Shown in pieces: positions 10,949 through 32,498 of a DNA stretch of 35,289 nucleotides. Numbering within the stretch: the stretch's first letter is position 1; every line of letters begins with the position of its first letter. The DNA is from a virus. A model generated the notes under the pieces. That model was not told the origin of the DNA. It saw only the letters and a program-made list of their open reading frames with translations, and did not search any database. Position numbers and translations under genes: made by a program. The DNA lies in UHGV virus genome UHGV-0114939; one strand, 5' to 3'.

Positions 10949-11067
10949 TTGTGTTGGTTCAAAATACCGTGTTGTTGGTTCAGTGTTGGTTCAATAAAAA
11001 GAATAAAATCCTTATAAAACAATACTCTTTACAAATTGAACCAACTGAACCAACTGAACCAACACCT
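10949..11067. repeat. iteron cluster 2: GTTGGTTCA at 10953, 10974, 10985 and 3 tandem TGAACCAAC at 11037-11063; mirror image of cluster 1
   Basis: 11027-11067 is an exact reverse complement of 2781-2821. Sits 22 bp 3' of the primase-helicase gene, like the P4 crr/ori repeats bound by alpha. Confidence 0.8.
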
Positions 11068-11088
11068 TTTCTACGCACATGAAGAAGC

Positions 11089-13848
11089 TCATTCTTCAGA
11101 TGAGTTATAATCTCCTGGCTGGTAATTGAGTACATAAACGTTTATTTGTCGTCCCTGAATACGTGGTGATTTTCTTTGGTATCCACGACCGCTGTTTGGT
11201 GGGGTTAGCATCCCGGCTTTTTTCAACACTTCAGCAAACTGTTTTGCGTTGAAACCACATGCGATCTCCTTTTCAAATGTGGCCGGGAATGTGTAGAAAA
11301 TCATTGGGCTTTCGTCATGTTCTCCACGCTGACGGTATCCGGCTAAATCTTTGATGGGCAAATCTGCCGGGCTGTATGGAAATGGTGCAAAACGGCTAAG
11401 CCCATAGGCATTAAGAAATGCCTCCGTTTGTTCAATAATCTGCTGATGCTCTTTGTTACCTGTGCCGAACTCACGCAACCATGCGTTATAGCTGTGCTGT
11501 ATCGCATCACGGCATGTCTGAGCATCCCAGCCTGTTACAACCTCGCCTAACAACAATGCGGCCTCCAGAATGGCAAATCGCGCGGCTACACGGTGAACCT
11601 GCTCACCATAATCGGATGGGATCAGGCTTCTCCATCTGCTTTCGCAATCACGAACGGTTTTAATAGCCTGTTGCTGGTGGTCTGCCAGCCATTTAATCCA
11701 CTCACGCCCGGACGCGCCGTGGTGATGCTGGTAAGCGTCTTTCAGTGCGTCTGCGTGCTGTTTTCCGTTCTGGTAATCGTGAAAGCGTACTGCTTTACTC
11801 AACGGAATATTCAGCAGTCGCACCAGTTGCCCGGCTTTGGTTTTTCGCCCGGAAGTAGCGATAAATGTTTCTAAATCCATTTCTCCGGTGCTGATTGCCA
11901 CTGTACGCCAACGTTTTAGATCCCGGTTTCCACCATCTTTAGCGCCTTGCAGTTTCCCTACACCGTTAAATAACGCATAGGCAGACTGTGAAACGCTGAC
12001 AGGATCAGCGCCCTGACCAACTTCATCAAGCGGCATTAGTCCGTCATTGTGGGCGGCGGCCTCATTTGCCAGCCCCAGCGCGGTTCCGTACCACGTCAGC
12101 CGCAGTAAATCAGGGTTGCCGTATAAGCTGCTCGCCACGTTTGCCGTGGTGGTCTTACCTGCGCTCGACTGCTCATAGAAATGAATGCCGAACCCGTCAG
12201 CGCCCACCAGCCCAATCAATGGCGCTGCCAGTGCTGCGCCGATCCCGGTCATCATTGAATAGTTACCAAAGGCCAGACGCGCCACGTTATCACGCCAGCT
12301 TTTCGCGCTCCCTGAGACGGTATATCCGGCTGCGGCTGAGCTTCTCCCGCTGAACAGCACAGGATTTTCAGGTGTTCCGATGATTTCCCCATCAGGCATG
12401 ATGTACGCTCCGCATTGCCAGCCAGTGGCATGAGCAACACGCCACAATTCACGAGAGCCACTGCGTTGTAGCCAGTCTGCCAGTATTGCTCTGAGGCTGC
12501 TTTTGGTCGTGACATTTACCCCACCAGCTTTAAGTGTGCGCCATCCTTCACGTTCACCAATATCAGCCAGTGGAATGGCAGCGGTTGTCGGCGTTTCAGA
12601 ACCAAACGACAGCCAGCGAAGAATGAGATACTGGTCTTTATCGTCTCTGCCAGTACCGATAACGCTTAACGGAGAACATAACCAGCTTTCGTTATTGATG
12701 ATTTCTCCACTCTGGCTGTCAGCTCTCGGAGATACCCAATAAATACCATCCTCGCGGCTTTCTATTCTTGGTTTCAGTGGGTCGGTATCCATAACCTTAA
12801 AATCGCTTCCCTCAATGGTCTGTGGCTCCTGTTTCACGCCATTACCCTGTGGTTGGTACATTGACTTATTGAACGCTTCTGTGGCGCATTTAATGCCGTG
12901 TTTTTGGTGGTAATCATTCCAGTCTGCTTTGTGATCTGTCGGGGGTAATGCCACCCATCCAGAAACAGATAAAGCTGCTTTTTCTGCTGCTATTCTCCCC
13001 GTGTTTTGTCTTCCTTCGCTGTGGTCGTTATCCGCAGCAATGATGATTTGTGCTGAAGGAAATTTATCCCGCAGTACCTGGGCGACATATAACAGGTTCC
13101 CGGCATCAATCGCCGCCACTGTCAGCGCCTCTGGACGAATTAAATGGGCAGATAATGCCGTTGCCAGCCCTTCTGCGATTAAGATGCTCTGTGTTGTTTC
13201 TGGTGCGTTTATGGCGTGATATGCCCCTCGCTTTGCCGAACCTGTCAGGAGTCTTTTTTCACCATGTGAGGTAATAGTCTGTGCTGCTGTGACTGCGCCG
13301 GATTTATCCACCAGCGCCAGCAACAGAGATCCATCGGGCAACACGGGGAATGTAAAATCACCTACCCCTTTCGCAACCAGATAATCAGATTTGCCGTTTA
13401 CAGCCTTTCTGCGCATGTCATCAAACTGACGGGAAAACGTATCCCGTCTTTGTTGTTCGTCCTTCTCTGCCCTTTTCAGGCGCTCCTGTTCGCGTCGCTG
13501 GCGCTCGGTTTCCAGTTGTTCCCGTTTCTGGCTGGTGGCTTCTGGTGTTTCCGTTGTCCGGTAATCAATACCCAGAACATCAGCGGCAAGAAGCGCCGCC
13601 TCTGTTGTGTCGCAGTTATTTACGCGTTTAATTAAATCCAGCCCATCACCAGCGCCGCACTGATTACAGATGAAGCTACCGCGCCCGTTGTCGTCGAACC
13701 GGAATCGATCTTTGCCCCCACATGCAGGGCAGGGAGCATGACGGCGCGGAGAGTCAGGGACATTTATGTTCAGGCAGCCCAGCACATGAGGCCAGTTGTT
13801 TTCAGACGCACTGATAACCTGACGGATAAGATCAATGTTTCGCATCAC
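11089..13848 (-). CDS. P4-alpha-like primase-helicase (zinc ribbon + Toprim + DUF927-type NTPase)
   Basis: Zinc ribbon CPACGG...FICNQCG; Toprim acidic motif IIAADNDH; Walker A YEQSSAGKTTT. Track start at 13848 is a GTG; an ATG follows at 13845. Confidence 0.85.
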   Translation of the reverse strand: MMRNIDLIRQVISASENNWPHVLGCLNINVPDSPRRHAPCPACGGKDRFRFDDNGRGSFICNQCGAGDGLDLIKRVNNCDTTEAALLAADVLGIDYRTTETPEATSQKREQLETERQRREQERLKRAEKDEQQRRDTFSRQFDDMRRKAVNGKSDYLVAKGVGDFTFPVLPDGSLLLALVDKSGAVTAAQTITSHGEKRLLTGSAKRGAYHAINAPETTQSILIAEGLATALSAHLIRPEALTVAAIDAGNLLYVAQVLRDKFPSAQIIIAADNDHSEGRQNTGRIAAEKAALSVSGWVALPPTDHKADWNDYHQKHGIKCATEAFNKSMYQPQGNGVKQEPQTIEGSDFKVMDTDPLKPRIESREDGIYWVSPRADSQSGEIINNESWLCSPLSVIGTGRDDKDQYLILRWLSFGSETPTTAAIPLADIGEREGWRTLKAGGVNVTTKSSLRAILADWLQRSGSRELWRVAHATGWQCGAYIMPDGEIIGTPENPVLFSGRSSAAAGYTVSGSAKSWRDNVARLAFGNYSMMTGIGAALAAPLIGLVGADGFGIHFYEQSSAGKTTTANVASSLYGNPDLLRLTWYGTALGLANEAAAHNDGLMPLDEVGQGADPVSVSQSAYALFNGVGKLQGAKDGGNRDLKRWRTVAISTGEMDLETFIATSGRKTKAGQLVRLLNIPLSKAVRFHDYQNGKQHADALKDAYQHHHGASGREWIKWLADHQQQAIKTVRDCESRWRSLIPSDYGEQVHRVAARFAILEAALLLGEVVTGWDAQTCRDAIQHSYNAWLREFGTGNKEHQQIIEQTEAFLNAYGLSRFAPFPYSPADLPIKDLAGYRQRGEHDESPMIFYTFPATFEKEIACGFNAKQFAEVLKKAGMLTPPNSGRGYQRKSPRIQGRQINVYVLNYQPGDYNSSEE

Positions 13849-15815: not shown

Positions 15816-16836
15816 TGGTTGCCCCCGTTTTTCCTGGCATTTCGCCACCTTCCAGCAGGAAATGAACGTCACGAACGGCGAGATCCAATATCGCGAGTAA
15901 CGCCTTCAGTCTTTCGTCTCGTGAGGGAGAGTTGCTCACCAGAATGTCGTTAATCACTTCTGTCAGTGTGATGATCTGGCTTGTGCGTTCGAGGGGATCC
16001 ATATGCACATCGTAGGTTTTAATCATGTGCCACCTCCATGCGGATACGACCAGCAAAAAAGCAGACGTGATCGCGCACCAGAGAACGGCGAGCATCGCGT
16101 TCAGACTCGGCAGCAATATGATGAATTTTGGCGGTAATTGTCGGGCAATCGCGGCGAACTGCGGCGATAATCCAGATAAATTGCGGTTTTTGGGTAGGGG
16201 TAGTAGCCAGCATGTGGCAGCCTCCTTGATTGATGGTTTATAGCCACCGCCGGAGGTCCTAAGCTCGCTGGCGGTGGACTGTACAGGGTTAGGACTACTG
16301 GCAATCAAGGAAACCAGCCTGACCGAAGTCAGCCCCATACAGCCCACCATTGATAAGGTGTGCGTGTGCGCCGATACAAAAAAAGACGCTGGCGCGTCAT
16401 GTATCGCCTCGATTGCCTGCGGGGTCCTAATCCCGGCACCCGTTTTATGAGGTGCCTTATAACCATAAACCGTGTTGCCGCATAACGGCAAGCTCTTTTT
16501 TATGGACTCCGAAAACTCAGTATTGGAAGCACCAGATGCACAGTACATCGCGCTCATTTCGTTAACGTCACGCACGTGGACGAATGTTTTTGTGGAGTCA
16601 CTACACGAGCGGAAGACATCATCTACGACCAGAAATTTTCTGGCGCAGCCGCTGACCTTCTCAATGCTAATATCATCGCCCGAGATTTCTGGTATGGTTA
16701 AGGCATCCGTTCCGGCCACCAGCAAATGATAAACTTTGCTTGTATCTGCTGTATTAATGCCTGACTTTGCCGTCATATTTCTGGATTTTGGCGACATACC
16801 AGCCAGTGAAAATGTCTTCTTCTGGATGGGTATCAT
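15808..16836 (-). CDS. hypothetical protein (342-codon open frame; may be composite)
   Basis: ATG at 16836 with GGAGGT RBS and ATGA overlap with the upstream gene, so the start is credible. Internal ORFs with strong RBS at 16213 and 16026, and GC-rich hairpins at 16245-16277, leave the true extent uncertain. Confidence 0.4.
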
Positions 16837-18912: not shown

Positions 18913-20127
18913 TCATGCGTGTTTTTCAAACACCATATGCACCACATTTCCGCCATGCTCGAGAGAATCCATATAGTCGGCATACCATTGAAGCATCTCC
19001 CGCCGTCCATCCAGATATTGCGCATGGTTGTATGTGCCACGAATTGAGTTCTTATCAACGTGAGCGAGCTGCGTTTCTATCCACGCGGTGTTATAGCCCT
19101 GCTCATGCAAAATCGTGCTCATAGTGTGTCGGAACCCATGACCAGTTACACGTCCAGCGTAGCCAATGCGCTTAAACACTTGGTTTATGCTGGCCTCACT
19201 CATTGTTTTCCTTGGATCATTGCGCCCGGGAAACATAAGAGGGTAATTGCCTGTTATTTCTCTAATCTTCCCAATAAGCGAAAGAGCCTGCTCAGACAAT
19301 GGCACAATATGAGGCCGCCGCATTTTCATACGTGAAGCGGGTATCTCCCATATAGCCTTGTTGAAATCAATTTCATCCCATAATGCGCCACGTAGTTCGC
19401 CAGTTCGCAAGCCGGTGATAATCAGTAGACGAGCCGCCATAACAACCAATGCGCTTCCTGAGTAACTGGACAATGCCTTGAAAAAATCAGGTAATTCTTT
19501 GGTCGTAAGGAAAGGGTAATGATTAGATTCATGGCCTTGCATCGCGCTAGTAAGGTCTGGTGCAGGGTTATACTCTGCGCGACCAGTGACTATTGCATAA
19601 CGGAAAACTTCCCCGCACCGCTGCCTCACTTTTTTGGCTTTTTCTGTCGCACCGCGCCCCTCGATGCGCCGCAGCACATTCAGAAGTTCAAGTGGTTTGA
19701 TTTCGGCGATTGGTTTTTTGCCAATGTAAGGGAACACATCTTTGTTGAAGGCTTCGAGGATGTCTGAAGCATAACCAGCAGACCATTTTTTTAATTTGCT
19801 GCTGTGCCACTCAAGGGCAATATCTTTGAAGGTGTTGTTTAACTGCGTTTCCCGGGCAATCTTTTCCTCTCGTTTCGCTTCCATCGGATCGATACCACCA
19901 GCGATACCTCTTTTCGCATCTTCTCGTTTTGCCCGAGCATCGGCTAGAGTAACCTCAGGATACACACCTAGTGCCAATAGCTTCTCTTTACCAGCTACAC
20001 GATATTTAAGTCGCCAGTATTTACCTCCATTAGGTTTTACCAAGAGATACAAACCGCCACCATCGGCCAGCTTGTAAGCCTTCTCTTTTGGCTTGGCTGT
20101 GTCTATTTGACGGGCATTGAGTTTCAC
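18913..20127 (-). CDS. P4-type tyrosine integrase
   Basis: GTG start at 20127 with GGAGGT RBS. N-terminal arm-binding signature LADGGGLYLLVKPNGGKYWRLKYR; C-terminal catalytic HGFRHT and Tyr region RGTYNHAQY. Lies next to the tRNA-derived att core. Confidence 0.9.
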   Translation of the reverse strand: MKLNARQIDTAKPKEKAYKLADGGGLYLLVKPNGGKYWRLKYRVAGKEKLLALGVYPEVTLADARAKREDAKRGIAGGIDPMEAKREEKIARETQLNNTFKDIALEWHSSKLKKWSAGYASDILEAFNKDVFPYIGKKPIAEIKPLELLNVLRRIEGRGATEKAKKVRQRCGEVFRYAIVTGRAEYNPAPDLTSAMQGHESNHYPFLTTKELPDFFKALSSYSGSALVVMAARLLIITGLRTGELRGALWDEIDFNKAIWEIPASRMKMRRPHIVPLSEQALSLIGKIREITGNYPLMFPGRNDPRKTMSEASINQVFKRIGYAGRVTGHGFRHTMSTILHEQGYNTAWIETQLAHVDKNSIRGTYNHAQYLDGRREMLQWYADYMDSLEHGGNVVHMVFEKHA

Positions 20128-20199
20128 TTGGGGGTACCTCCACTAAACCGAACAGCAAATACCCCCATAAGTACCCCCATCTGACCGTAGATTTTGAGG

Positions 20200-20275
20200 G
20201 ACTTTAGTAGACGTCAAAAGACGAACGGGGCTTTAATACGTGGATTATAAGGGGTTTTGAAAGACTTTAGTAGAC
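20200..20275. repeat. 13-bp direct repeat GACTTTAGTAGAC x2 (20200-20212, 20263-20275), candidate integrase arm-type sites
   Basis: Exact direct repeats between the integrase start and the att core. Confidence 0.35.
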
Positions 20276-20292
20276 TTGGGGAGATGTTTGAA

Positions 20293-20328
20293 TGGTGCCG
20301 ATAATAGGAGTCGAACCTACGACCTTCG
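20293..20328 (-). other. att core, copy 1: identical to the 3' end of tRNA-Thr(CGU), including CCA
   Basis: Minus strand reads CGAAGGTCGTAGGTTCGACTCCTATTATCGGCACCA. A 14-nt tRNA 5' fragment GAGCAGCGCATTCG lies at 20372-20385, separated by a 41-nt hairpin-containing insert; no intact acceptor stem, so not a functional tRNA. Confidence 0.6.
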
Positions 20329-20443
20329 ATTCCAATGACGTGTTTCACAAGTCATTGATTCTTCGAACCGAATGCGCTGCTCCTGAAAGGCAAAACTGAC
20401 ACAACTGATCACGGTTGCCCCTGAATATTAGATCGGGGGAAAG

Positions 20444-21646
20444 ATGAAATACAAGCCTAATGCGTACCTTGTTAAAGAAAACTCGTCGGTATACTCCGTC
20501 AAGGTCACTATTCCGCCTTATATGCGTTCCCTTTTTGGGAATCGAACAGCATTCATGCGTACAACAGGCACGGCAGATATCAGGGAAGCCCGAATCATTC
20601 GTGACAAAGTCATGCACGAGTTTTTTGCTATCAGAGACAGACTCAAGCCAAAACCACAACGTAACAGTGTTGATCGCGTCCTGGTGGAACTGCGCTCTAT
20701 CAACCAGCATGTAAGCCAAAATGATGGGATAGACTTCGCCACGGCTCGTGTGTGTCCCTCCCTTGTCCAACTGCGGGATGAATTTATTGTCCAACACAAT
20801 GACAGGCGCAAGCTGTCTACCTTGAGCAAGTACATTAAGGCGGTGGAGGTCTTCACGGCTCATTTCCGGCGTAAGGATTTCCAGTTGCAGGAAATCAACA
20901 GGACTATGGTCACCGATTGGTTAGACAGCGCCAAGCAGGAGAAAGCCAGCCAGACACTGGCGAATTATCTTGGCTGTCTGTCCCAACTAGTGGCACTGGC
21001 TCAGAACCGTTATCACGATGCGCCGAAAGAGAATGTATTCGCGGGCCACAAACTGGACGTGCGCCATGATCGAGAAAGCTACGAACCCTTTAGCGGGGAT
21101 GAACTAGCTAAGGTGTATGCGGTGCTTGATGAAGAGATGAAAGCCGTTGCGATGGTGGGAATGTATAGCGGTATGCGCCTTAACGAAATCTGCTCTCTGC
21201 AAATCAGCAATATCAAAACCGTTGAGGGGGTATGGTGTTTCGAGGTGACGGAGGGTAAGACACGCAATGCGGCTCGCCTGGTTCCAATTCATAGCCGATT
21301 GACGACACTCGTTAAAGACCTCATCCAGAACAACCACAATGGCTTCTTATTCTACCATGCCAGCATCACAGAACGTGCAGACGGCAAGCGCTCAACGTGG
21401 CATACACAGCGATTTACACGGGCTAAACGTAAAGCGTTGGCTGAGAAAGGCACTGAGCGGAAGGTGTTTCATAGTCTGCGGGGAATGTTCATCAGCCAGC
21501 TTGATCGTGGTGGAGTCCCAGAGGACAGGATCGCATTGATTGTGGGTCATGAGCGCGGGAAAACCGAATCATTCCGCACCTATAGCCAAGGGGCTAGCAT
21601 GAAGGAGTTGGCGGATTATGTAGACATTGTCTCACATAGCATATAA
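20444..21646 (+). CDS. tyrosine integrase (site-specific recombinase)
   Basis: ATG at 20444 with GGGGGA RBS. Catalytic-region motifs HSLRGMF and RTYSQG. Diverges from the att core, opposite the element A integrase. Confidence 0.85.
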   Translation: MKYKPNAYLVKENSSVYSVKVTIPPYMRSLFGNRTAFMRTTGTADIREARIIRDKVMHEFFAIRDRLKPKPQRNSVDRVLVELRSINQHVSQNDGIDFATARVCPSLVQLRDEFIVQHNDRRKLSTLSKYIKAVEVFTAHFRRKDFQLQEINRTMVTDWLDSAKQEKASQTLANYLGCLSQLVALAQNRYHDAPKENVFAGHKLDVRHDRESYEPFSGDELAKVYAVLDEEMKAVAMVGMYSGMRLNEICSLQISNIKTVEGVWCFEVTEGKTRNAARLVPIHSRLTTLVKDLIQNNHNGFLFYHASITERADGKRSTWHTQRFTRAKRKALAEKGTERKVFHSLRGMFISQLDRGGVPEDRIALIVGHERGKTESFRTYSQGASMKELADYVDIVSHSI

Positions 21647-21792
21647 AAGTAAAACACACCATAAAAACAGCCAAAAAAAAACAATAGTTATAACTTAATA
21701 AAATTTAATGCTAATTAATTCAAATCATTATCATCTCGCTTCATTTTTTATTTATTTGGAAATATATTGATACAAAAAAGGACGGATTGACT

Positions 21793-22434
21793 ATGACTCA
21801 GCGAATTCAGCAGATCCAACGTATCGTGGAACAGCAAGGAATCACTCAACTGGTACATTTCACTAAGGCCGAAAATCTTCCAAGTATAATGGAACATGGG
21901 ATAGTCCCGATTTCTCGGATTGGAGAGTTTGGTATCACGCCTGCCACTAATGATCAACTTCGCCTTGATGGTCATTTAGATGGTACGTCTCTTTCTATCA
22001 CCTTTCCTAATCACAGAATGTTCTACAAATATAGGCTGGAAAATCAAGGGGTTGATTGGGTGGTGTTAGGTATAAAACCATCTATTCTATGGACAAAGGA
22101 TTGCGCGTTTTGTCGCCACAATGCTGCGGATGCTCGAATAAGCGTCAAGGCATTGGATGATTTGAGGCTTCCTGAATCACTTGCGGGAATGTTTAGCGAG
22201 ATAGACGGGTATGAAACACGAGATGGTCAAAAACTTTTAACATCCGATCCAACAGACGAACAAGCAGAAGTGTTAGTTTTTGATGTAATTGAACCTGAAC
22301 TGATCTTAGGGGCGGCCTTCAATAGCAGAACCGCAAACACACTTTACCAAAATCTCTTCGGAGAAAAAAAGATTATACTTAATGACAAAACCAATGGTTT
22401 ATTTGGTTCTCGTTCATTTAAGCGTAAGTGGTAA
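21793..22434 (+). CDS. DarT-like (DUF4433) DNA ADP-ribosyltransferase toxin candidate
   Basis: Track start at 21787 is TTG; ATG at 21793. N-terminal LVHFTKAENLPSIMEHG and C-terminal DEQAEVLVFD match the DarT hallmarks H-F-T...NL.SI..G and QAE-hLV (from memory). Lower GC than flanks. Confidence 0.65.
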   Translation: MTQRIQQIQRIVEQQGITQLVHFTKAENLPSIMEHGIVPISRIGEFGITPATNDQLRLDGHLDGTSLSITFPNHRMFYKYRLENQGVDWVVLGIKPSILWTKDCAFCRHNAADARISVKALDDLRLPESLAGMFSEIDGYETRDGQKLLTSDPTDEQAEVLVFDVIEPELILGAAFNSRTANTLYQNLFGEKKIILNDKTNGLFGSRSFKRKW

Positions 22435-22438
22435 AACA

Positions 22439-23146
22439 ATGGCACAAAGGCCCGTATATATACCTGTTAAAGAAAAATCACTCTTCGTAAAAACTGAGCT
22501 TGTAGATTTTACGTGGTTCCCGGGAATGTCAGTCTCACAAAAGCAGAAATCAATTGACTCGCTCCATGAAGCAGCAAAGACAAGCCTGCCTAATGTGGAC
22601 AAAATCCTTGAGATTTCCAGCAAGTCCCGTGAAACCCTCGGTGTTGCACTGAGTGCTTTCAACCTTTCTTTCACGACCCTGAAACAGCAACGTACATTAA
22701 CTATCGAAAGTGCGTTTCAAGGTAGCAAAGTGTTCCAACGTGGGGGTCCATATACCGACATGTTCGACATGACTCCTCGCGAAGCCAAAAAGGACAAGCG
22801 TTTATTGACCTCTGGCAGACTGACCGGATTCAAATTTTTTGGTAAAGAATGGGAACTGGAGCCACGTACTGCATTTTATGATTGGCTGTATATAAGTGCA
22901 TTGAAAAAAAGTACCGAGCTAGCAGAGCAACTAATTGAATATTCAGCATTTACTGACATAGAGTTCAATCCTGAGCGCTCGATAAATTGCCAAGCATATT
23001 CTGCGGCATTATATGTTTCATTATACAAACAAGGCATTCTTGATGATGCCATTGCATCTAAAGAGAGTTTCCTAGAAACGATCAAAAGTGCATCAATAAG
23101 TAATGCTCTTCAAGATGAAACAACTCAATCGGGCTTTGGGTTTTGA
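22439..23146 (+). CDS. hypothetical protein, cognate partner of the DarT-like gene (no macrodomain or NADAR signature seen)
   Basis: ATG at 22439, 4 nt after the DarT-like stop. 235 aa lacking the Gly-rich loops of macrodomains and the NADAR motifs. Confidence 0.6.
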   Translation: MAQRPVYIPVKEKSLFVKTELVDFTWFPGMSVSQKQKSIDSLHEAAKTSLPNVDKILEISSKSRETLGVALSAFNLSFTTLKQQRTLTIESAFQGSKVFQRGGPYTDMFDMTPREAKKDKRLLTSGRLTGFKFFGKEWELEPRTAFYDWLYISALKKSTELAEQLIEYSAFTDIEFNPERSINCQAYSAALYVSLYKQGILDDAIASKESFLETIKSASISNALQDETTQSGFGF

Positions 23147-23148
23147 AA

Positions 23149-23165
23149 GCCGGGATTAACCCGGC
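23149..23165. terminator. hairpin GCCGGG-ATTAA-CCCGGC between convergent genes (putative bidirectional terminator)
   Basis: Perfect 6-bp stem directly after the stops of 22439..23146 (+) and 23167..23373 (-). Confidence 0.4.
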
Positions 23166-23166
23166 C

Positions 23167-23373
23167 TCAATGTTTCAGTTTAATCTTTCGATGCTGCTCA
23201 TAATGAGCAAGTGCTGATTCCCAACCGTAATCATTCACCCGCTGCAAAAAAGTGCTGCGTGGAACGTCGAAATATCTCGCAATGGCTGACAGATTCAACC
23301 AGTTATCGGATTGATTATCAAGACTCATTGCCAGAAGTGGCAGACCTTTAGAATTGAACAGTTTCATGTGCAT
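23167..23373 (-). CDS. small helix-turn-helix protein
   Basis: ATG at 23373 preceded by AAGGAAAGGAGAT. HTH-like LSAIARYFDVPRSTFLQRV. Confidence 0.5.
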   Translation of the reverse strand: MHMKLFNSKGLPLLAMSLDNQSDNWLNLSAIARYFDVPRSTFLQRVNDYGWESALAHYEQHRKIKLKH

Positions 23374-23437
23374 GTGTGTATCTCCTTTCCTTTGCCTCGC
23401 CTGGCAGCGGGAGCAATGCGCTCCCGCAAACCGCTTT

Positions 23438-24478
23438 TTATGCTGTTGGTAATAGCGTCATCTTACAGACCAGATCCGGCCTGAAGTTGTATGCCATGAG
23501 GCTGTATTCACTATATAAATTCCGATTTCGTAACTCGTCGAAAGCTCTGTATGCGTACCAATCTTCAACATCACCAGAAGCGGAGATTTCAAGATGGCGA
23601 GCACATGGACCAATGAAGCGTCCCATAGGCAAACTCTGCTCAACCGGAGCATTTCCAAAGACCGGAACAAGGAAAGCCTCGTTTGACTTGATACCGCTGA
23701 ATGCTGAATCGCTGACTTCGATCAGACGCACAGAACCCAGCATAAACGAACTAAAGCCTGGCAGAACATCAGACGGGAACAGCACATCAGAACCAACCAG
23801 CCCGTTTGAATAAACTAGCAATTCACGAATCTGAGGAGAATATCTCACAGCACGGTAGGCATCAGATCCGCACAGCAGAACCCAACCACGCAGATATTGA
23901 GTTAGTCCACCCATCAGCGCTTTAGTGGCGCTAACCTGATCGTCAATGTCGCGCATCGGGTCATCATTCACACCTTGGTGCAAATCAGCGGTTCGCTGGT
24001 TCAGGGAGAATTCTACAGCCCAATCGATCTCATTTTGCTGAGTACCCCAAGCGTTAACTTTATTGAAAATCAAAGCCTGCCAATAGGCATATTCACGTGA
24101 GCGCTCAAACTTGGCACGCATCTGAATAAACTTGTTGGCCTCAATCTCATCAAGAGACTGCTCCATAGTGCTGCCAGGTTTACGGTAACCTTTGAGATCT
24201 GCCGAAGTCACACGGTCAGTCACACCAGACCAAGGCAATTCGTATAAATACGAGCCTGCTGTCGGCTTCTCGATAGTCCCCCACTCCGAACTGAAACGCA
24301 TCAATGGCGCATCCACACCAATAGATGCCTCTTGGATACGATCCATACTAACTTTGTGGGAATCTGCGATCTGACGGTCTGCAAATACATCAAGGTGAGT
24401 CAGCAGTAAATTGCTCTGCGGAACCTGAGTACGGAAGACCTTGCTGTAATTAACATAATCGAATGATTTAATAGCCAT
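23438..24478 (-). CDS. major capsid protein, lambda gpE-like
   Basis: 346 aa (lambda gpE is 341) directly downstream of a gpD-like gene; C-terminal architecture loosely parallels gpE. Distant similarity judged by eye only. Confidence 0.55.
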   Translation of the reverse strand: MAIKSFDYVNYSKVFRTQVPQSNLLLTHLDVFADRQIADSHKVSMDRIQEASIGVDAPLMRFSSEWGTIEKPTAGSYLYELPWSGVTDRVTSADLKGYRKPGSTMEQSLDEIEANKFIQMRAKFERSREYAYWQALIFNKVNAWGTQQNEIDWAVEFSLNQRTADLHQGVNDDPMRDIDDQVSATKALMGGLTQYLRGWVLLCGSDAYRAVRYSPQIRELLVYSNGLVGSDVLFPSDVLPGFSSFMLGSVRLIEVSDSAFSGIKSNEAFLVPVFGNAPVEQSLPMGRFIGPCARHLEISASGDVEDWYAYRAFDELRNRNLYSEYSLMAYNFRPDLVCKMTLLPTA

Positions 24479-24501
24479 TTTTGAAGTCCTTTTCTTGTTT
24501 G

Positions 24502-24852
24502 TTATTCTGCGATGACAGCATCGTCAGAGGTCAGGCGAATGTTTCCGTTGGCGGTCAATGCTGCTAGTGCTGCATTTGTTGCTGAACCCATTACGGCGCG
24601 GATTGCTTCTGGGTACACATAAATTAGGCGGTCAGCCACGATGACAGGAACATCAGAACCTGCCTCAGCGTAGGAGAGGCACAGAAGCGCATCAGTCCCA
24701 GAGGTGTAAAGCGTTCCGGTAGAGGTCACCACGGAACCTGGTTCCACAGCCTGTACGAGTGTCGCGAATACAATCGTTCTGCGGTCAAAATTGGCATATG
24801 CCGAATTTTTCACCACGTTGTTATACGTTTTTGGATAATCTTCCAGTTTCAT
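24502..24852 (-). CDS. head decoration protein, lambda gpD-like
   Basis: 116 aa; ATG at 24852 with GGAGAT RBS. LIYVYPEAIRAV resembles the gpD region EDVLWPEAAS. Precedes the capsid gene as D precedes E in lambda. Confidence 0.55.
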   Translation of the reverse strand: MKLEDYPKTYNNVVKNSAYANFDRRTIVFATLVQAVEPGSVVTSTGTLYTSGTDALLCLSYAEAGSDVPVIVADRLIYVYPEAIRAVMGSATNAALAALTANGNIRLTSDDAVIAE

Positions 24853-25494
24853 AGTCTTGAATCTCCATTCAGGTCATCGCCAATGATGGCGTTATTATTT
24901 CTCTGGCAAATTTGCCATTGAGGGGCGAAAAGAAAGCCGCTATCAGCGACTTCGTTCACTTCGTTTTCCATACAGAAAAAGACCAAGGCGAGAATATCCC
25001 GCCTGGTGTAGGTCAGTAGTTTTCTGATGGAGAGATTTGGAAAGCATGAGTGTGTTCACGCTTCAGGAATAAGGAGGCGGCAACGCTCCAAAGAATGGGT
25101 AAGGAGACCCAAAAACGTTGCCACCTGATGCCGTTAGTGTCCGGCTGACAGCCTTCCGAGGATGAAAGGGCTTTGGCAAATCTCCGATCCAAGGTCGGAG
25201 AAAATTCTTTTCTGATACAGCCAGCGGCTATGGCTTCACCTTCCCGTGAGAGAGTGCGGATTATTGGCTGTATGAGAAAAGGCCCGCACGGTATTCACAC
25301 AGGCACTTTATATTTCGTAAGAGAAGGAATGACAACGGCTGTTGTACGCACATACAATTTAAATCATCACCCTATGCAATTATTTTAACACGAATGATTA
25401 TCATTTGCAACAACAAAAACAATAACATGGCGAATTTAACGGCCCTCTCTCGTGTGGGCCAATTTACTACGTCATTTTTGACGGAACGATGATT

Positions 25495-27636
25495 TTAGTC
25501 CGCAATCCCAAGGATGAGGTTATTCTGCGCCTGGTTGTTTTCCCTTATCTTGGTATCAACCAGCCCTGCGATCTTATCGTCATGGACAAACACATCCATC
25601 TGCTGATTAATGTTCGCTTGCCCGGTAACACTGACAGGAATCGGCTGTCGCTGCGTCATGCTATCAATTGTCGGAACCGTGAACGTTGGTTGCTGGGGTG
25701 TTAGATAGTTCAGGCCAGGAACATTCAACGCTAGCGCTGGAACGTTATACGCCGTGCCTGAGCCGATACTGCTCGAAGCGGAACTATTCAGCCACGGGTA
25801 AATCTGTTTCAGAGTCTGACCGATGCTACGTGGATCAAAGCCGGTCTTTTCCTTAATCCAATCGGCAGCACCGTTTGCGGAGTCATCTACCACGCTCGTA
25901 TAAACCGCATCCGGCAATGTCGCGCCTTTCTTGAGTTCTTCACCAACTCGACCAGCGAAGGAGAGAATGTTGGTGGTTAGCTCACCAAGGGCAACGCCGA
26001 GGGAATCGGAAATTGGGATCAGTCCAGTCATATTCTGACGTAGAGTGTCAGTATTGGCAGCGTACTGCCCCAGGCCTTCAACAAACGAGGCTGAGAAGTG
26101 ATCCGCAAGGCTGGTTTGTACTCGGTTGTACTCAGCCCCCAAAGCTGCCAGCTTATCAAGGTTGGCCTGCTGTGCATCAGATAGCGTCCATCCTTCAGAA
26201 GCGAGTTGATGCATACGCTGGATAAGTCCCTGCCCCTCATCATTGAACACTTCGAGGAAGACCGAACCATCATTTACAGCCTCAGCCAAGTGCCGGGTCT
26301 GGTTGTTCGTCCATTTGAAAGTTTTCTGCAACTGTTTCAGGTAAGTGATGAAGGTCGGAAAATCCAGCTTTTGCAGTTCTCCGATCACCTTCTGTGCTAC
26401 CTTCTGGTTGCCGTTGGTGGAGGTCAGCACGTTGTTGATGATATCTGCGAACTCGCCACCGCCGCTGAAATTCACCTGTCCAGTTTTCTTGTTACGTTTG
26501 AAAGAGCCGGTGTTCAGCAATTCCCCGGCCTTTTCGGTTGTGTCCTTGTTGAGGTCAGCCAGCTTGTCAGCACTCAGTGAGTAACCAACACGGCTCATTG
26601 ATAGATCCTGAAGTGCTGCAAACTCAAGGTTGCTGATCCCATACTGCTGGAGTTTTTTCACATCGCGAGAACGCTCAAGGCTTCCCTGAAGGGTCTGACC
26701 AACACGAGAAACGCCCATACTACCTACTAACGCCGCACCACCAATAACACCAGCGGCAGCAAGACCTACACTCCCACCACGGCTTTCTGTGCGTACACGA
26801 CCAGCACGAACACCTGCGGTTTTCTGCTCACGGGTAGTACGTTGTTGCAAACGAGCCTGCTTGCGTAATTCTGTGGTGATACGAGCCATTTCGAAGCGGG
26901 TCTCTTCGACCGTATAGCGCTCTTCTTTCTGGGCTTTGAGTGCCTCTTTTGCTGCACTGATCGCTTTATAACGGGTTGCAACGCCAGCGCCGTTCACGTT
27001 TGCCAGAGTCAGAGCGCTACGGCGCAAACTGTTGTAATAAGTCACATCGCGCTTAAGGCCTGCCTCTTTCTCACGCTGACGCTTTTCCTCCAGGGCCATC
27101 GCCTTTTTGGTGGCTGCGATGTCAGCAGCAACAGCGCCGTGACCACGGTTCATTGCTTCAGTCTGGCGAGAAACAAGACCGGGATCGTAATGTTGACCGC
27201 CCATGTTGGGGTTGTAGGTCATCGCGCGGGAGCGACTCGCCTGTCTCACCTTTTCAGATATTGCTGCTAAACGGGCATTCTGACGTGCTGCCTGTTCCTG
27301 TTGGGATAACTGGCGAGCCTGTAATGAGGTCATTTTATTGGCGTGGGCGATTGCGTCCCGCTCCATTTTGGCTTGTATCTGAGCTTGTTTCTGTTGCTGT
27401 TTTGACAATTGTTCAGCCTGTCGAAGTTTCGCAGTCTGGGCTTTCGCTGCTGCTAGTGCTGCTTTGCCTTCACTCTGGGCGGTACGCTTCTGTGCCTTCT
27501 CAAGCGCTTTAGCGGGTTTCTCGTGAGCAGCCTTAAGCGAAATTATCTTCTTTTTGGCTTTTTGATATGAGGCATCGTCTGTGATCCACGAGATTTCATT
27601 AACGGTGCTGGTAACAATCTTATTGGTCCCACTCAT
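25495..27636 (-). CDS. tape-measure-like protein (coiled coil, Ala/Gln-rich, internal hydrophobic Gly-rich segment)
   Basis: 713 aa; ATG at 27636 overlaps the upstream stop (TAATG). Segment GSVGLAAAGVIGGAALVGSMGV and long A/Q/K-rich helices are typical of tape-measure proteins. Confidence 0.5.
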   Translation of the reverse strand: MSGTNKIVTSTVNEISWITDDASYQKAKKKIISLKAAHEKPAKALEKAQKRTAQSEGKAALAAAKAQTAKLRQAEQLSKQQQKQAQIQAKMERDAIAHANKMTSLQARQLSQQEQAARQNARLAAISEKVRQASRSRAMTYNPNMGGQHYDPGLVSRQTEAMNRGHGAVAADIAATKKAMALEEKRQREKEAGLKRDVTYYNSLRRSALTLANVNGAGVATRYKAISAAKEALKAQKEERYTVEETRFEMARITTELRKQARLQQRTTREQKTAGVRAGRVRTESRGGSVGLAAAGVIGGAALVGSMGVSRVGQTLQGSLERSRDVKKLQQYGISNLEFAALQDLSMSRVGYSLSADKLADLNKDTTEKAGELLNTGSFKRNKKTGQVNFSGGGEFADIINNVLTSTNGNQKVAQKVIGELQKLDFPTFITYLKQLQKTFKWTNNQTRHLAEAVNDGSVFLEVFNDEGQGLIQRMHQLASEGWTLSDAQQANLDKLAALGAEYNRVQTSLADHFSASFVEGLGQYAANTDTLRQNMTGLIPISDSLGVALGELTTNILSFAGRVGEELKKGATLPDAVYTSVVDDSANGAADWIKEKTGFDPRSIGQTLKQIYPWLNSSASSSIGSGTAYNVPALALNVPGLNYLTPQQPTFTVPTIDSMTQRQPIPVSVTGQANINQQMDVFVHDDKIAGLVDTKIRENNQAQNNLILGIAD

Positions 27637-27959
27637 TACACCCCCTGCTGCTTGATGATATTGCCGTATCGATCAGGATCGGATTTTGCGAGAGCAGCAG
27701 CCGCTGCTTTAGCCTTCGCCAGTATTTCAGGATCGATATGGTCAGCGGTATGTGAGACAACCGAACGACTATCAGCACCCAACGATTTTTTAATCCGTTT
27801 GGTGGGGGTGTCAGACGAGGCTGATTTGAGCAACTCCGGATGTTGATCTAGAAAGTTATCGGTGACGCTCTTCAGATTGTCCCGCGCTTTTTGGAGTTCG
27901 TATTCCTCCGGTGTCATGCCATGCATGGCGGCGAAAATCCGGTCTTTTATTGTGGTCAT
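27636..27959 (-). CDS. hypothetical protein (possible tail assembly chaperone by position)
   Basis: 107 aa; ATG at 27959; immediately precedes the tape-measure-like gene. Confidence 0.45.
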   Translation of the reverse strand: MTTIKDRIFAAMHGMTPEEYELQKARDNLKSVTDNFLDQHPELLKSASSDTPTKRIKKSLGADSRSVVSHTADHIDPEILAKAKAAAAALAKSDPDRYGNIIKQQGV

Positions 27960-28073
27960 TTTTATAGTATCTCCAGAGAAGGATGCTCCCGCCGATCAGG
28001 ACGTGACGAAGCGCCACCCAGATCCAAAGCAGGAAAAAGATGTAATCAAAGTTCATTGGCTCCCGATGTGGGA

Positions 28074-28547
28074 TTATTTGGATTTACGTTTAGTGCGCTT
28101 CTTCTTCACTGTCGGCAGCTTGCAGATATTCGCGAACACGTCTGGGTAGTAACCCAACATTTCAGCGTCAGTGATCCCGGCGTTATGCAGGTAATATCGA
28201 AGGCTGACGTATGACAGACCATCGCAACGCTTGCGGATCTGTTCCGGGTGCATCCGATGTGACCACATTTCACGGACAAATTCTGTCCGGGCTCTCGGTG
28301 TCATCATCGCCCAGGTCACCGCTTGTTTTTGACGTGCGAGCCGCCAGACTTCAGCGAACGGCAGATCTAGGGTATTAGCGACAATATGCGGTGAAAATCC
28401 ACGATTAAGCAATAAACGGGCTTTGCGTTGTGTTTCCGGATCGGAAGGTTTGGATCGGGATTTATATGTCGGTTTCTCCAGAATGGAGAACAGGCGGGAT
28501 AGCTGGATTTCTTCTTCGGCGCTCAGGCCGTTGGCAACATCACACAA
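28074..28547 (-). CDS. hypothetical protein with HTH-like region
   Basis: TTG start at 28547 with strong GGAGGA RBS 5 nt upstream; basic C-terminus KKKRTKRKSK. Confidence 0.5.
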   Translation of the reverse strand: MCDVANGLSAEEEIQLSRLFSILEKPTYKSRSKPSDPETQRKARLLLNRGFSPHIVANTLDLPFAEVWRLARQKQAVTWAMMTPRARTEFVREMWSHRMHPEQIRKRCDGLSYVSLRYYLHNAGITDAEMLGYYPDVFANICKLPTVKKKRTKRKSK

Positions 28548-28562
28548 TTATTCCTCCAATTG

Positions 28563-29474
28563 CTAAAACGGTTCGTCATCATTAAATTCAAGCTGCTCAT
28601 CCTCTTGCTGCTGCGGGGTATTAGTAGCCTGTTTCGCTTCGGTTGCTCTTCGCGCCTGCTGCTGTTTGTAATAAGCATCAGGACCGGATGAAGTATCGTT
28701 AGCGGCAGACCTCGATCCTTTGTATCCATCGCTCTGGATGATTCTGATATGGCTCTTTATCAGATCTGTTATCGCACCAGGTTTTTCTATCCCCCACATC
28801 GCACCATAGGCCATAAATCCTTCATCGTCGTAGCCTTCTACCCAGTTGTTGAGGGTATCGATATCTGCCATCTGGGGCTGGTCTGGGCTTTTGACTGTTG
28901 GGAATTGGATTGCATTTCCACCATTCACCGCATCATCACCACCGGATAGATCAGCATCGACAGGAACACCCACAGGAGGTACGCCGTCTCGCTTTCCAGC
29001 ACCGCCCTGATCAGATTCGCCATCACCTTTTTTCTCCTCGTTTTTTGGCTGTTGACTAGATTTTCCTAAGCGTTTCTCATGGTCATACATTGGTTCTCCA
29101 GCCCACTCTGGGTAGGAAAACTCCAGATTTCCAGCGACCTTATCAACATCGATCACTTTATAAATATTGCAACGCCCGACCTTTCCAGTGATTTCAACTA
29201 GACCAAGAGCGATCAGCTTATCGATCTGAGGCTTTGTTTTCTTCTTGGCGTCACCGATTCGAGCAACGGTCCCTAGACGCTCCTGCGACTCAGCAAATGG
29301 CTGTTTCAAGCCTTTCCGATAACGGTACTGATTAAGCATATAAGCGTATAATTTTTCTAGTGAATTGCTAATCTCAACCACTTCACCAGTGGATTTATTT
29401 GTAACCGTGTCTGCATGGAAAAGGCGATTCTCGCTCTTGTAAAAACGCTCATTGGTGTTTCCGTTCTGGCTCAT
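28563..29474 (-). CDS. hypothetical protein, possible winged-helix replication initiator-like N-terminus, acidic C-terminus
   Basis: ATG at 29474 with GGGAGAA RBS. N-terminal LEKLYAYMLNQYRYRKGLKQPFAESQERLGTVARIGDAKKKTKPQIDKLIALGLVEI resembles the lambda O N-domain style wHTH (weak, by eye). Confidence 0.45.
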   Translation of the reverse strand: MSQNGNTNERFYKSENRLFHADTVTNKSTGEVVEISNSLEKLYAYMLNQYRYRKGLKQPFAESQERLGTVARIGDAKKKTKPQIDKLIALGLVEITGKVGRCNIYKVIDVDKVAGNLEFSYPEWAGEPMYDHEKRLGKSSQQPKNEEKKGDGESDQGGAGKRDGVPPVGVPVDADLSGGDDAVNGGNAIQFPTVKSPDQPQMADIDTLNNWVEGYDDEGFMAYGAMWGIEKPGAITDLIKSHIRIIQSDGYKGSRSAANDTSSGPDAYYKQQQARRATEAKQATNTPQQQEDEQLEFNDDEPF

Positions 29475-29637
29475 GTTGTTCTCCCTGTGGGTTCGTCAGT
29501 GGTTGTTCATTGCGTTTCTGAATGTGTTTCGCCAGGTTCTGGCACATGTTCCGGATCATCCTGGGAACCGGCATCCCGAGGCGGTCAGATTCCTCGCGTA
29601 AAATTGCATATGTTTCATCGTCTAAAGATAGTTTCAT
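29449..29637 (-). CDS. putative ribbon-helix-helix DNA-binding protein
   Basis: ATG at 29637 with GGGGGGAA RBS. MKLSLDDETYAILREESDRLGMPVPRMIRNM has an RHH-like strand-helix pattern. Overlaps the start of 28563..29474 by 26 nt. Confidence 0.4.
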   Translation of the reverse strand: MKLSLDDETYAILREESDRLGMPVPRMIRNMCQNLAKHIQKRNEQPLTNPQGEQHEPERKHQ

Positions 29638-29765
29638 CTCAAGTTCCCCCCGAATGCATAAAGGTTATCGCCCCTGCGATCACGGTGGCGATCAGGGGTA
29701 AGGAGTCGTGTTTGCGGCGATTTCGTTTGGTGGCGTTGCTGCCAACGGAGTAATGCAGAGAATGG

Positions 29766-30194
29766 TTATTCGGTTGTGGTCAGTTCGGGAATGGCTTTTC
29801 CGATAATGCCTTCGAGTTCACCGCCAGACTCAATCATCTTAAGCAGAAGGATCTGCTCATTCATCAGACCGATGCCATGAGAGGCGTAATAGACACGCCA
29901 GGCAGACAGCACTGGTTCAATGATTTCCATAACATCACGGCCTTTTGCCAACTCTGCTGAGTACGGTTTAAGAATATCCCGGATGATTTTTGCGTCTTTC
30001 GCTTGCTGACGCAGGCGTTTAATGATGTTCAGTGCTTCGCGAGTAGCTGGATAGAGCTTATCGGCTTTCTTGGCACCACCCATACGAGTACGGAAGGCGT
30101 GAAGGTTTTGAGCTGTGGTAATTTTTGCATCGATTGCAGCGACAATCTCTGAGGCAGTGGCGTTCGAGAAATCGAACAGAACAGGTTTCCCCAT
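29766..30194 (-). CDS. hypothetical protein, first gene of the leftward operon
   Basis: ATG at 30194 with AGGAGAG RBS; 142 aa. Confidence 0.55.
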   Translation of the reverse strand: MGKPVLFDFSNATASEIVAAIDAKITTAQNLHAFRTRMGGAKKADKLYPATREALNIIKRLRQQAKDAKIIRDILKPYSAELAKGRDVMEIIEPVLSAWRVYYASHGIGLMNEQILLLKMIESGGELEGIIGKAIPELTTTE

Positions 30195-30825
30195 GTATCT
30201 CTCCTATTTAAGTTATTGTTTAGTCATAAAATCATCTCAGTTGATAATATATATTTTATAGTAAATTAGTTTATTTGTCAACCGATTTCTCATTTAATTG
30301 ATGAAGTAATTGATGTGTTTTTTGTCAATACCCCGCAACTTTATACACAGACCTTTTCTTTGTCAAGCCCCCTAACCACAAAGCGCTCTCAGACGCTTAA
30401 GATTCAACGCTGTAAGCGAAGCGGTACAAAGTCACCAGCAATAGGAGAAAGACGCTCTGAAGGAGACAGGGAGCGTTACAGGGCCGCTTGCATCATGGCA
30501 TCGCCACCGAGAATCACAGGGCCGTTATAGCCTTGTGAGATTGAGGGGGGACCGCCGCCCCCAGGGGGGGAGTGTACGTCGCGTTGCAAGCTCCTCTGCG
30601 CCGTGCTCGATCCACATTGACTGACGCGCCTCGCGGCTTGTCTTCCACACATATCTGAAGTGGCAGAGCCATTCAGAGCAGAGCGATACAGAAGCATCAC
30701 TCCTTAACACCAACAATTGAACGCATGTTCAACCAGTCTTTGACCCGTCTTTAGATCTTGACCTTAAGTCTTACATGGCTTTAAAAGTCTTTATGGGTTT
30801 TATAATCTTATTAAAAAAGTCTTTT

Positions 30826-30947
30826 TAGTGGGGTGTTTTTACCCCCATTACTGGCACTCTATAGGGGTATATTTACCCACATACCAAAATTCAATAGGGG
30901 TGTATTTACCTACATTCAAATTCCTATAGGGGTATTTTTACCCCCAT
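30826..30947. repeat. four 23-bp iterons (GGGGT-N6-ACCCC type) at 32-34 bp spacing; putative replication origin of element B
   Basis: TAGTGGGGTGTTTTTACCCCCAT (30826), TATAGGGGTATATTTACCCACAT (30860), AATAGGGGTGTATTTACCTACAT (30893), TATAGGGGTATTTTTACCCCCAT (30925). Confidence 0.55.
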
Positions 30948-31937: not shown

Positions 31938-32498
31938 ATGAAGAAGGTCGAACCAGTCAGAGACAAAGAGAAGATCGCAGAGGTTGAAAGACTGCTGCGT
32001 CAGAATAACAGCAGCGCTATCTACGGTGATTTGTGGGTGTTCCTGAATCAGACAGCGGCGCGTATTGGTGACGCTCTCAGGTTGCGTTATACCGACTTTA
32101 ATCACATCGAAGGGAACGTGTTGAATCTGAAGGAACAGAAGACAGGGAAAATCCGCTCGATCATGCTGACTGCCAAAGCGCTTGAACTGGTAGCACAACG
32201 CCGTGCTGATAATCCCGGTCATGAATACCTGTTCGAAGTGGACAGCAACCGGGCCAAAGGAAAACCGATCAGCCGGGTGACGGTCTCAGCCAAATTCAAA
32301 GAAGCCGGAGATATGCTCAATTTGCACATTGCGGCGCACAGTCCACGCAAGAACCTTGGCTATCACGCTATAAAACGTGGGGTAAGTCTGCCGACGCTCA
32401 CGAAGCTGTACGGGCATTCATCGCAGGCGGTCACGCTGGCGTATTGTGGGATCATGGATAAGGATGTCGAAGACGTTTTCCAGACTATAGATTATTGA
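31938..32498 (+). CDS. small tyrosine recombinase, FimB/FimE-like (catalytic domain only)
   Basis: 186 aa; ATG at 31938 with GGGGGAA RBS. Catalytic-region motifs HSPRKNLGYHAIKRG...LYGHSS...LAYCG (H-x-x-R ... H ... Y). Confidence 0.75.
   Translation: MKKVEPVRDKEKIAEVERLLRQNNSSAIYGDLWVFLNQTAARIGDALRLRYTDFNHIEGNVLNLKEQKTGKIRSIMLTAKALELVAQRRADNPGHEYLFEVDSNRAKGKPISRVTVSAKFKEAGDMLNLHIAAHSPRKNLGYHAIKRGVSLPTLTKLYGHSSQAVTLAYCGIMDKDVEDVFQTIDY

Follow-up and report, generated by a model that had tools for sequence, protein, structure and literature searches.

In the virus genome UHGV-0114939 a broken copy of a tRNA-Thr gene lies between two integrase genes that read away from one another, and the question this locus raises is whose sequence the broken copy is: the debris of a host gene, or a working part of one of the mobile elements that meet there. 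The whole stretch analysed, hereafter the window, is 35,289 nucleotides (nt) long and contains, in order, element A, core copy 1, the 14-kb element B, core copy 2 and the end of element C, the cores being attachment (att) sequences derived from the tRNA-Thr gene thrW. We read the locus as a tandem junction, the tRNA remnant as an attachment arm carried by the 14-kb element, and the hairpin that interrupts its anticodon as a presumptive part of the architecture of that arm; for this reading as a whole we estimate a probability of about 0.75. The features that define the array are as follows.

18913–20127, minus strand: integrase of the left element (A), P4 type, with the Pfam domains Arm-DNA-bind_3, Phage_int_M and Phage_integrase.
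20293–20328, minus strand: core copy 1, the junction shared by the left element and the 14-kb element (exact thrW match and 34-bp repeat).
20444–21646, plus strand: integrase of the 14-kb element (B), a tyrosine recombinase (Pfam Phage_integrase, with a weak DUF6538-type N-terminus; PHROG integrase; homologues in Enterobacterales).
34290–34333, minus strand: core copy 2, its CCA side (CCA changed to CTC) from the 14-kb element and its 5′ side from the third prophage (thrW match and repeat).
34514–35065, minus strand: serine invertase of the resolvase family at the end of the third element (C), with Pfam Resolvase and HTH_7.

The E. coli tRNA-Thr gene with anticodon CGT served as the thrW reference, the native gene being read for nucleotide numbering. 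Core copy 1 (CGAAGGTCGTAGGTTCGACTCCTATTATCGGCACCA) is identical to thrW nt 41–76 including the CCA, a match equalled by 0 of 100 shuffles, which bears out the earlier note in placing a copy with a true CCA end at 20293–20328 on the minus strand. The same 36-mer has a second match at 34288–34323 with 2 mismatches, both at the CCA end; the second core that the note had reported at 34290–34333 is indeed present, corresponds to thrW nt 31–74 on the minus strand, and reads GGCAC then TC in place of CCA. Common to both cores is a perfect 34-bp direct repeat, detected by repeat search (20295–20328 and 34290–34323), which equals thrW nt 41–74.

On the 5′ side of copy 1, in the tRNA sense, the order is ...GCCTTTCAG-GAGCAGCGCATTCG-GTTCGAAGAAT-CAATGACTTGTGAAACACGTCATTG-GAAT-CGAAGG.... 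The segment GAGCAGCGCATTCG, read directly and compared with native thrW, is nt 22–35 and contains the 3′ strand of the D-stem, the 5′ strand of the anticodon stem and the first two anticodon bases. This 14-nt fragment of the tRNA 5′ region had been recognised beforehand but placed 3 nt away, at 20372–20385; its correct position is 20369–20382 on the minus strand. The 41-nt insert previously described as replacing the anticodon region exists as a 41-nt gap containing an inverted repeat, whereas the best thrW alignment gives a 37-nt insert inside the anticodon, after G35, with G40 lost. Likewise, the inverted repeat CAATGAC/GTCATTG (20333–20339 and 20351–20357) is real but makes up just the outer part of a longer, 25-nt hairpin at 20333–20357. 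The acceptor 5′ strand is absent from the junction, as had been observed, nt 1–21 being deleted. ARAGORN found 0 tRNA genes in the window and Rfam none, including a run at E ≤ 10 on 20200–20480, so that no intact tRNA overlaps copy 1 inside the window. These results together with the loss of nt 1–21 rule out a functional tRNA gene; an intron-containing tRNA (group I or bulge-helix-bulge) is ruled out by the missing 5′ acceptor strand and D arm and by a 37–41-nt insert without an Rfam intron match.

Both integrases are of the tyrosine type and do read away from the junction, as had been noted. Comparison with E. coli genomes divides the region between them exactly at the core. E. coli YJ6 matches the window from the left integrase through the CCA with 98.4% DNA identity, and beyond the core continues with uninterrupted thrW identity (GCATTCGTAATGCG...) into a different element; because YJ6 has the same flank beside a different neighbour, what lies to the left of copy 1 is part of a distinct element with a P4-type integrase. 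Read in the tRNA direction, the CCA has this integrase immediately after it, the canonical order of tRNA, then integrase. The YJ6 annotation (locus L001, 3394–3505) also carries a 112-nt ‘tRNA-Ser’, called by PGAP over the analogous thrW-core junction between two integrases, at which ARAGORN finds none; the call looks like an annotation artefact of a composite att junction. The left-element arm contains one further feature.

20192–20212 and 20255–20275, unstranded: two 21-nt direct repeats TTTTGAGGGACTTTAGTAGAC (repeat search; the flank also occurs in YJ6).

These repeats are candidate arm-type integrase sites, and AGTCTACT-type motifs recur in further P4-type flanks.

The right-hand side of the pseudo-tRNA behaves differently. 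E. coli 2016C-3878 has the right integrase, the leader, the 14-nt fragment (with 1 substitution) and the same insert, followed after the CCA by yagU-side chromosome. The same arm lies upstream of a homologous integrase (84% identical) in Raoultella terrigena, the sole locus returned when species-representative genomes were scanned with the integrase; it is also present in three viral contigs and about 30 metagenome contigs, and at loci reached through integrase proteins just 66–82% identical. The sequence that follows the CCA next to this arm has at least 15 different flanks, and one metagenome contig carries an element 98.7% identical to that of the window over 9.9 kb, with yet another post-CCA flank. 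In the metagenomes the arm accompanied the integrase at 40 loci. Since the arm is constant with the integrase while the post-CCA flank varies, the arm is that of the right-hand element, and neither the host's nor the left element's. The description of the locus as a disrupted tRNA is therefore not upheld in the sense of a host gene wrecked in place, the arm travelling with the right integrase and its post-CCA flank differing at least 15 times. Taking the two together, we regard it as very probable that 20130–20444 is a composite junction, at which two element arms meet via one common thrW core, and that the leader, the 14-nt fragment and the hairpin form the P arm (the integrase-side attachment arm) of the right-hand 14-kb element.

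The arm of the left element abuts the CCA end of the core borne by the 14-kb element. In many of the loci compared, the hairpin-bearing core likewise has on its CCA side an element with an integrase, of P4 type or another, so the element-borne core is apparently in regular use as a secondary landing site. The left element would have integrated into the element-borne core and not into the real thrW.

At the other end of the 14-kb element, thrW identity to the right of copy 2 reaches nt 31 and then gives way to the arm sequence tctactaATTCG...; E. coli ET791 has this arm (tctactaATTCGTAATGCG) joined to a thrW core, with invertase and tail-fibre genes alongside. The third element thus has arm and core with identity to thrW from nt 31 on, amounting to 46 bp where the CCA end is kept (ET791), which we take to be the length of a P22-type core. 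E. coli relatives of the serine invertase region are annotated as a recombinase adjoining tail-fibre genes, and element C, of which the window has the end, is a prophage of myovirus-like type whose relatives have an invertible tail-fibre region. The proposal that elements had integrated successively at thrW is supported by the cores, the single integrant 2016C-3878, the rejoined empty site (below) and the separate flanks. Given an array A-B-C with separate flanks, the intact thrW should therefore lie to the right of the window, beyond C; one further thrW core should lie to its left, beyond element A.

The 14-kb element itself extends over 20295–34323 and is bounded by the perfect repeat of thrW nt 41–74. 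The single integrant 2016C-3878 has the order proA, thrW, an element of ~13.6 kb, integrase, hairpin-bearing pseudo-tRNA with CCA, and chromosome (yagU side); its thrW is annotated by PGAP as 73 nt, ending GGCAC/TCACACAAC. Complete copies of the same layout are present in the metagenome contigs L038, L044 and L051. When the junctions of 2016C-3878 are rejoined they give an empty site; 1,641 of 5,426 complete E. coli genomes contain it without interruption, the best matches having 100% coverage and 98.8% identity; this comparison was made on the junctions of an E. coli relative of the window's element rather than those of the window's own host. The metagenome contig L024 joins the hairpin arm, core and far arm in the manner of an attP, an arrangement that a circle and a tandem copy would show alike. 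The features of a tRNA-type att junction found here are thus bounding repeats, an adjoining tyrosine integrase and a contiguous empty site. A side effect of integration is seen at the tRNA gene: post-integration thrW ends GGCAC/TCACAC (2016C-3878; L007, 5975–6050; compare 34288–34290 in the window), the genomic CCA having been replaced, and the regenerated thrW would need CCA addition to function.

In single integrants the hairpin is always on the integrase side and regenerated thrW is never found with it; strand exchange therefore takes place 3′ of the hairpin, within nt 41–74. A crossover in the 14-nt block or in the hairpin was rejected, as either would leave regenerated thrW copies with a hairpin, and none has one. 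We infer that the crossover would lie at the T-loop, the point of symmetry of the nt 41–74 identity block.

The arm also retains part of the sequence that precedes a native thrW gene.

20383–20390, minus strand: thrW leader remnant CCTTTCAG, 8 nt, fused to nt 22 (comparison with the native leader).

The native E. coli leader runs ...ATGTCCTTTCAGG/GCCGATA (also read as ...tgtCCTTTCAGG/GCCGATA), and its counterpart in the element runs ...TTGCCTTTCAG/GAGCAGCGCATTCG, the leader being joined straight to nt 22. Thus 8–9 nt of the thrW leader are kept, with a clean deletion of nt 1–21; the calculated chance of a 9-nt exact leader match at the predicted position is ~4e-6. Alignment of the whole leader was better than 5000 of 5000 shuffles, and p was about 0.08 once the last 9 nt were removed. 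Homology between the far arm and the native downstream flank of thrW was not significant. The distant lineages L008, L009, L054 and L059 share the CCTTTCAGGAGCAGCG form, which is therefore old. The Raoultella-type arm seems to contain a piece of the acceptor 5′ strand (ACCGATTAT), but this was given no weight, remoter lineages having the CCTTTCAG form. The arm descends from a complete thrW gene, in the order leader, loss of nt 1–21, nt 22–35, hairpin in the anticodon, and nt 37–76; the ancestral gene faced away from the integrase. Relatives with integrases 56–62% identical occupy a tRNA-Leu gene, presumably leuX. At least one of these (L010) has unbroken identity from the D-loop to the CCA and others are partly decayed; the thrW-type hairpin was not found in any of the tRNA-Leu-site relatives compared.

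What, then, does the hairpin do within this arm?

20333–20357, minus strand: 25-nt hairpin at the anticodon position, with an 11-position stem, one T·C mismatch and a GAA triloop (folding of variants and covariation).
20348–20360, minus strand: perfect match to the integration host factor (IHF) consensus WATCAANNNNTTR, as AATCAATGACTTG, formed by the hairpin 5′ arm and its flank, 42 bp from the T-loop centre.
33960–34289, minus strand: far arm (P′ arm) of the 14-kb element, with an IHF-like site, a promoter-like site and conserved structure.

All 15 distinct versions fold into a hairpin of 21–25 nt, usually with an 11-position stem and with a GAA or GCA triloop, and across the 11 variants of the same length the helix is 92.6% paired. 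Double-sided changes occur in 3 of the 11 pairs (G-C/A-U, A-U/G-C and U-A/C-G/U·G); the covariation score of the whole tested structure exceeds that of 500 of 500 shuffles, and pairing is 23–45% when the partners are slid by 1–3 columns. The loci L008, L009 and L059, which came from integrase-protein searches and not from the search pattern, differ in arm sequence yet keep the pairing (the three arm pairs being CAACAAGA/TCTTGTTG, CAGTAAGT/ACTTGCTG and CAACAAGAT/ATCTTGTTG). An additional outer stem (TTCGA/TCGAA) around the hairpin was dropped, since it shows disruptions only and no compensation. The insert is single-copy per genome and, among E. coli genomes, confined to the 22 that carry this integrase; a dispersed repeat, such as a miniature inverted-repeat transposable element (MITE), a repetitive extragenic palindrome (REP) or a bacterial interspersed mosaic element (BIME), is ruled out by its occurrence as one copy per genome, always with the integrase. 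CAATGAC is not enriched in the window, and the insert has no match in Rfam (20200–20480, E ≤ 10). An RNA, a DNA hairpin and a symmetric protein site would fit the covariation equally well. Five independent wobbles occur, each a T·G on the tRNA-sense strand, with no A·C (p about 0.03–0.05, an estimate), an asymmetry that is suggestive only.

An IHF match lies 42–43 bp from the T-loop centre in all 13 variants, 10 of them perfect and 3 with one mismatch, the background rate being 0.016 perfect sites in 110 nt; most of the variants were found with a pattern that fixes AATCA and TGGAAT. Where the 5′ arm has substitutions they affect free consensus positions, with matching changes in the 3′ arm. 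The far arm has an IHF-like match too, oriented like the first: of six far arms, five carry it at +45 and one at +34, and in the window it occupies 34256–34268. Two bending sites symmetric about the crossover are a hallmark of the lambda-type attP. The sequence of the tRNA itself cannot supply a bending site in the P arm; the 5′ arm of the hairpin would provide an IHF bending site there at the right distance, mirrored at ~45 bp on the other arm, and the hairpin would then be a selected part of the attachment-site architecture. The covarying 3′ arm would point to intrastrand pairing (in a cruciform, in single-stranded DNA or in RNA) or to a symmetric protein site. We hold this IHF/architectural role of the hairpin tentatively, at somewhat less than even odds.

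Several points weigh against the reading put forward here. The evidence for IHF binding is a match to a consensus, and an IHF site by itself leaves the covarying 3′ arm unexplained. Conservation of the P-arm IHF site is independent only for the window and for L003, L007, L008, L009 and L059, which were found by protein or BLAST searches. The wobbles, all T·G in the tRNA sense, fit a single-stranded nucleic acid better than recognition of a duplex by a protein. Regarding integration, the junction of L024 could be a tandem junction instead of a circle, and the support from empty site and circle comes from relatives and not from this genome; regarding descent, leader homology past the 9 nt is not significant (p about 0.08).

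The strongest competitor, which we consider unlikely but worth serious attention, is that the hairpin acts as RNA: a tRNA-sense transcript could regulate the integrase leader in antisense or form the leader of the leftward operon. Such a transcript would start near a TAATAT −10-like box overlapping the start region of the integrase gene, run through pseudo-tRNA, hairpin and core, and in the excised circle reach the leftward genes by way of the structured far arm. In favour of it, the stem is kept by compensatory substitutions, the five wobbles are T·G with no A·C, and the tRNA-sense fold is the more stable one in L008, L009, L015 and L041. The arm derives from a transcribed gene and keeps its leader, TA..AT boxes stand at the same place in distant relatives, and the far arm has a conserved structure on this strand as well. 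The far arm is non-coding and strongly conserved in divergent relatives, with a fold z of −3.5 and, in RNAalifold, 47 pairs of which 13 have compensatory changes; a promoter scan places a promoter-like site, TTAAGA-18-TACAAT (34258→34229), just upstream of the structured stretch, which may be a regulatory RNA or leader. However, the promoter scan of 20000–20600 was empty, the fold of the whole pseudo-tRNA is unremarkable (z = −1.05) and has no Rfam match, and the wobble asymmetry (just p about 0.03–0.05) could stem from constraint on the IHF-like 5′ arm. A more far-reaching version, in which the hairpin-bearing pseudo-thrW and the structured far arm form one tRNA-derived regulatory RNA module that couples expression of the integrase or of the leftward operon to the state of integration, seems to us improbable. 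If true, the module would be read across the attachment site in the circle and replaced by the host thrW once integrated, and it would belong to an undescribed ~12–15-kb family with a capsid protein, defence genes and the look of a phage satellite.

Less probable again is a neutral quasi-palindrome, the relic of a small insertion (MITE/REP-like) or the scar of an old integration at the anticodon loop, kept by template-switch correction. Correction of quasi-palindromes by template switching from arm to arm is established and can imitate compensatory change; the insert occupies precisely the anticodon loop, which integrases classically target, and there are short flank duplications (TTCG, GAAT, CGAAG). 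Against this, the sequence is single-copy and found only with this integrase, keeps the same position in lineages with integrases just 66–70% identical, and has entirely different arm sequences in some of them; the IHF positions of the 5′ arm are preserved and change falls at free positions. The proposed outer stem decays, so the region is not simply slow-evolving.

It is highly unlikely that the hairpin is an intrinsic terminator shielding the integrase gene from outside read-through: on the integrase-sense strand ATTCTT or ATTTT does come after it, yet a scan of 20000–20600 called no terminator on either strand, the stem is AT-rich and the U-tract weak, and several variants have C·A mismatches on the integrase-sense strand. 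A 41-nt insertion that broke the host thrW where it stands, leaving the remnant as chromosomal debris that separates two islands, would account for the collinearity with thrW including 8–9 nt of native leader, but can be set aside almost completely. It is already contradicted by the occurrence of this arm with the one integrase family across several genera and metagenomes, next to at least 15 downstream flanks, by an intact thrW that coexists about 13.6 kb away in single integrants, and by the attP-type junction that links the arm to the other end of the element.

Beyond its ends, two regions of the 14-kb element on the integrase side are worth describing.

20391–20443, plus strand: conserved arm from the pseudo-tRNA to the integrase start, kept in relatives with integrases 66–70% identical.
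21787–23146, plus strand: cargo slot with a DarT toxin and a NADAR antitoxin (Pfam DarT 5.9e-19, NADAR-DarT1 7.6e-94).

In the former, CCCC (20418–20421) can pair in the predicted fold with GGGGG (20435–20439), overlapping the ribosome-binding site of the integrase gene; the pairing is kept in distant relatives, including those at the tRNA-Leu site, and may exert translational control of the integrase. Directly after the integrase, DarT (a single-stranded-DNA ADP-ribosyltransferase) and NADAR occupy a position at which relatives have a GNAT acetyltransferase or AbiTii, so that it looks like a swappable anti-phage defence slot. Further along are a lambda-E-type major capsid protein gene (23438–24478), a 713-residue coiled-coil protein resembling a tape measure (25495–27636), a DUF6945 Rep-like protein (28563–29474), four 24-nt iterons (30825–30947) and a 186-residue open reading frame with a Phage_integrase catalytic domain (31938–32498, plus strand), to which a 185-residue gene in L059 is similar. 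No terminase or portal was recognised in the element. Many assembly contigs of ~14–15 kb carry homologous integrases, and the element may represent an uncharacterised satellite-like family; phage-database searches gave no close relative of either the left or the 14-kb element.

The left element has genes for an AntA antirepressor, an Ash-family protein, a P4-alpha-like primase and P22-type ejection proteins. Rfam places a C4 antisense RNA (80 bits) and an adjoining isrK (63 bits) at 16267–16455 on the minus strand, beside the Ash-family and AntA genes, and by these matches the region is probably a P1/P4-style RNA immunity region. Tandem GTTGGTTCA repeats form two clusters (2778–2910 and 10950–11070) that are inverted, 8.2 kb apart, with 55-nt arms that are 95% complementary; one cluster lies just past the end of the P4-alpha-like primase gene (11089–13848), and the two bracket the P22-type ejection genes. 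The clusters look like iterons, and we presume them comparable to P4 ori/crr.

Much of the att biology described here is ordinary. Tandem integration at thrW has been documented for the Shigella phages SfI and SfX (PMC3306764), and these P22-like tandem prophages share with the present array the target, serial integration, and an att core between elements as well as at both ends (PMC3306764). The present array differs in having three unrelated integrase types, one of them integrated beside an element-borne core and not thrW. Islands in tRNA genes catalogued by Islander are bounded by a regenerated tRNA and a displaced 3′ fragment (PMC4383910) and, as here, have a tyrosine integrase beside a tRNA-derived repeat (PMC4383910). 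Unlike such islands, the arm here retains tRNA-gene sequence far in excess of what the identity block requires (the leader and nt 22–35), interrupted by the hairpin, and the regenerated thrW loses its encoded CCA. Integrase families prefer particular sublocations of tRNA genes, namely the anticodon loop, the T-loop or the 3′ end (bioRxiv 10.1101/2020.11.02.365908). The identity block of nt 41–74 conforms to this scheme in including the symmetric T stem-loop, whereas the thrW clade has an insert exactly at the would-be anticodon-loop sublocation.

The resemblance to lambda attP, with its H2 and H′ sites, lies in two same-orientation IHF-consensus sites ~42/45 bp either side of the presumed crossover, a likeness of consensus only, and in candidate repeated arm sites further out; in contrast to lambda, whose IHF sites are not palindromic, the P-arm site here is within a palindrome whose other arm covaries. 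The attC sites of integrons and the attP of CTX phage are recombination sites formed by folded hairpins. A strand-specific covarying hairpin beside a tyrosine-recombinase site resembles these, and the likeness is one of resemblance only, as the crossover here falls in normal duplex sequence shared with the tRNA gene and not in the hairpin. Literature searches returned no description of the 14-kb element or of the hairpin, and, as far as the searched collections go, the hairpin and its element family seem to be undescribed. What is unusual is the presence in an attachment arm of a 5′-deleted tRNA copy that bears its leader, the IHF-consensus hairpin that interrupts the anticodon, and the loss of the CCA from the regenerated thrW.

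A pseudo-tRNA at an island junction can thus be a mobile element's own attachment arm and is not necessarily host debris, and the element-borne core apparently acts as a second landing pad, so that tandem arrays build up at thrW. For annotation, the relevance lies in the spurious PGAP tRNA-Ser at an analogous junction and in a thrW left without its encoded CCA after integration. For the integrase family, the covarying IHF-consensus hairpin provides a concrete handle on how its recombination complex is assembled.

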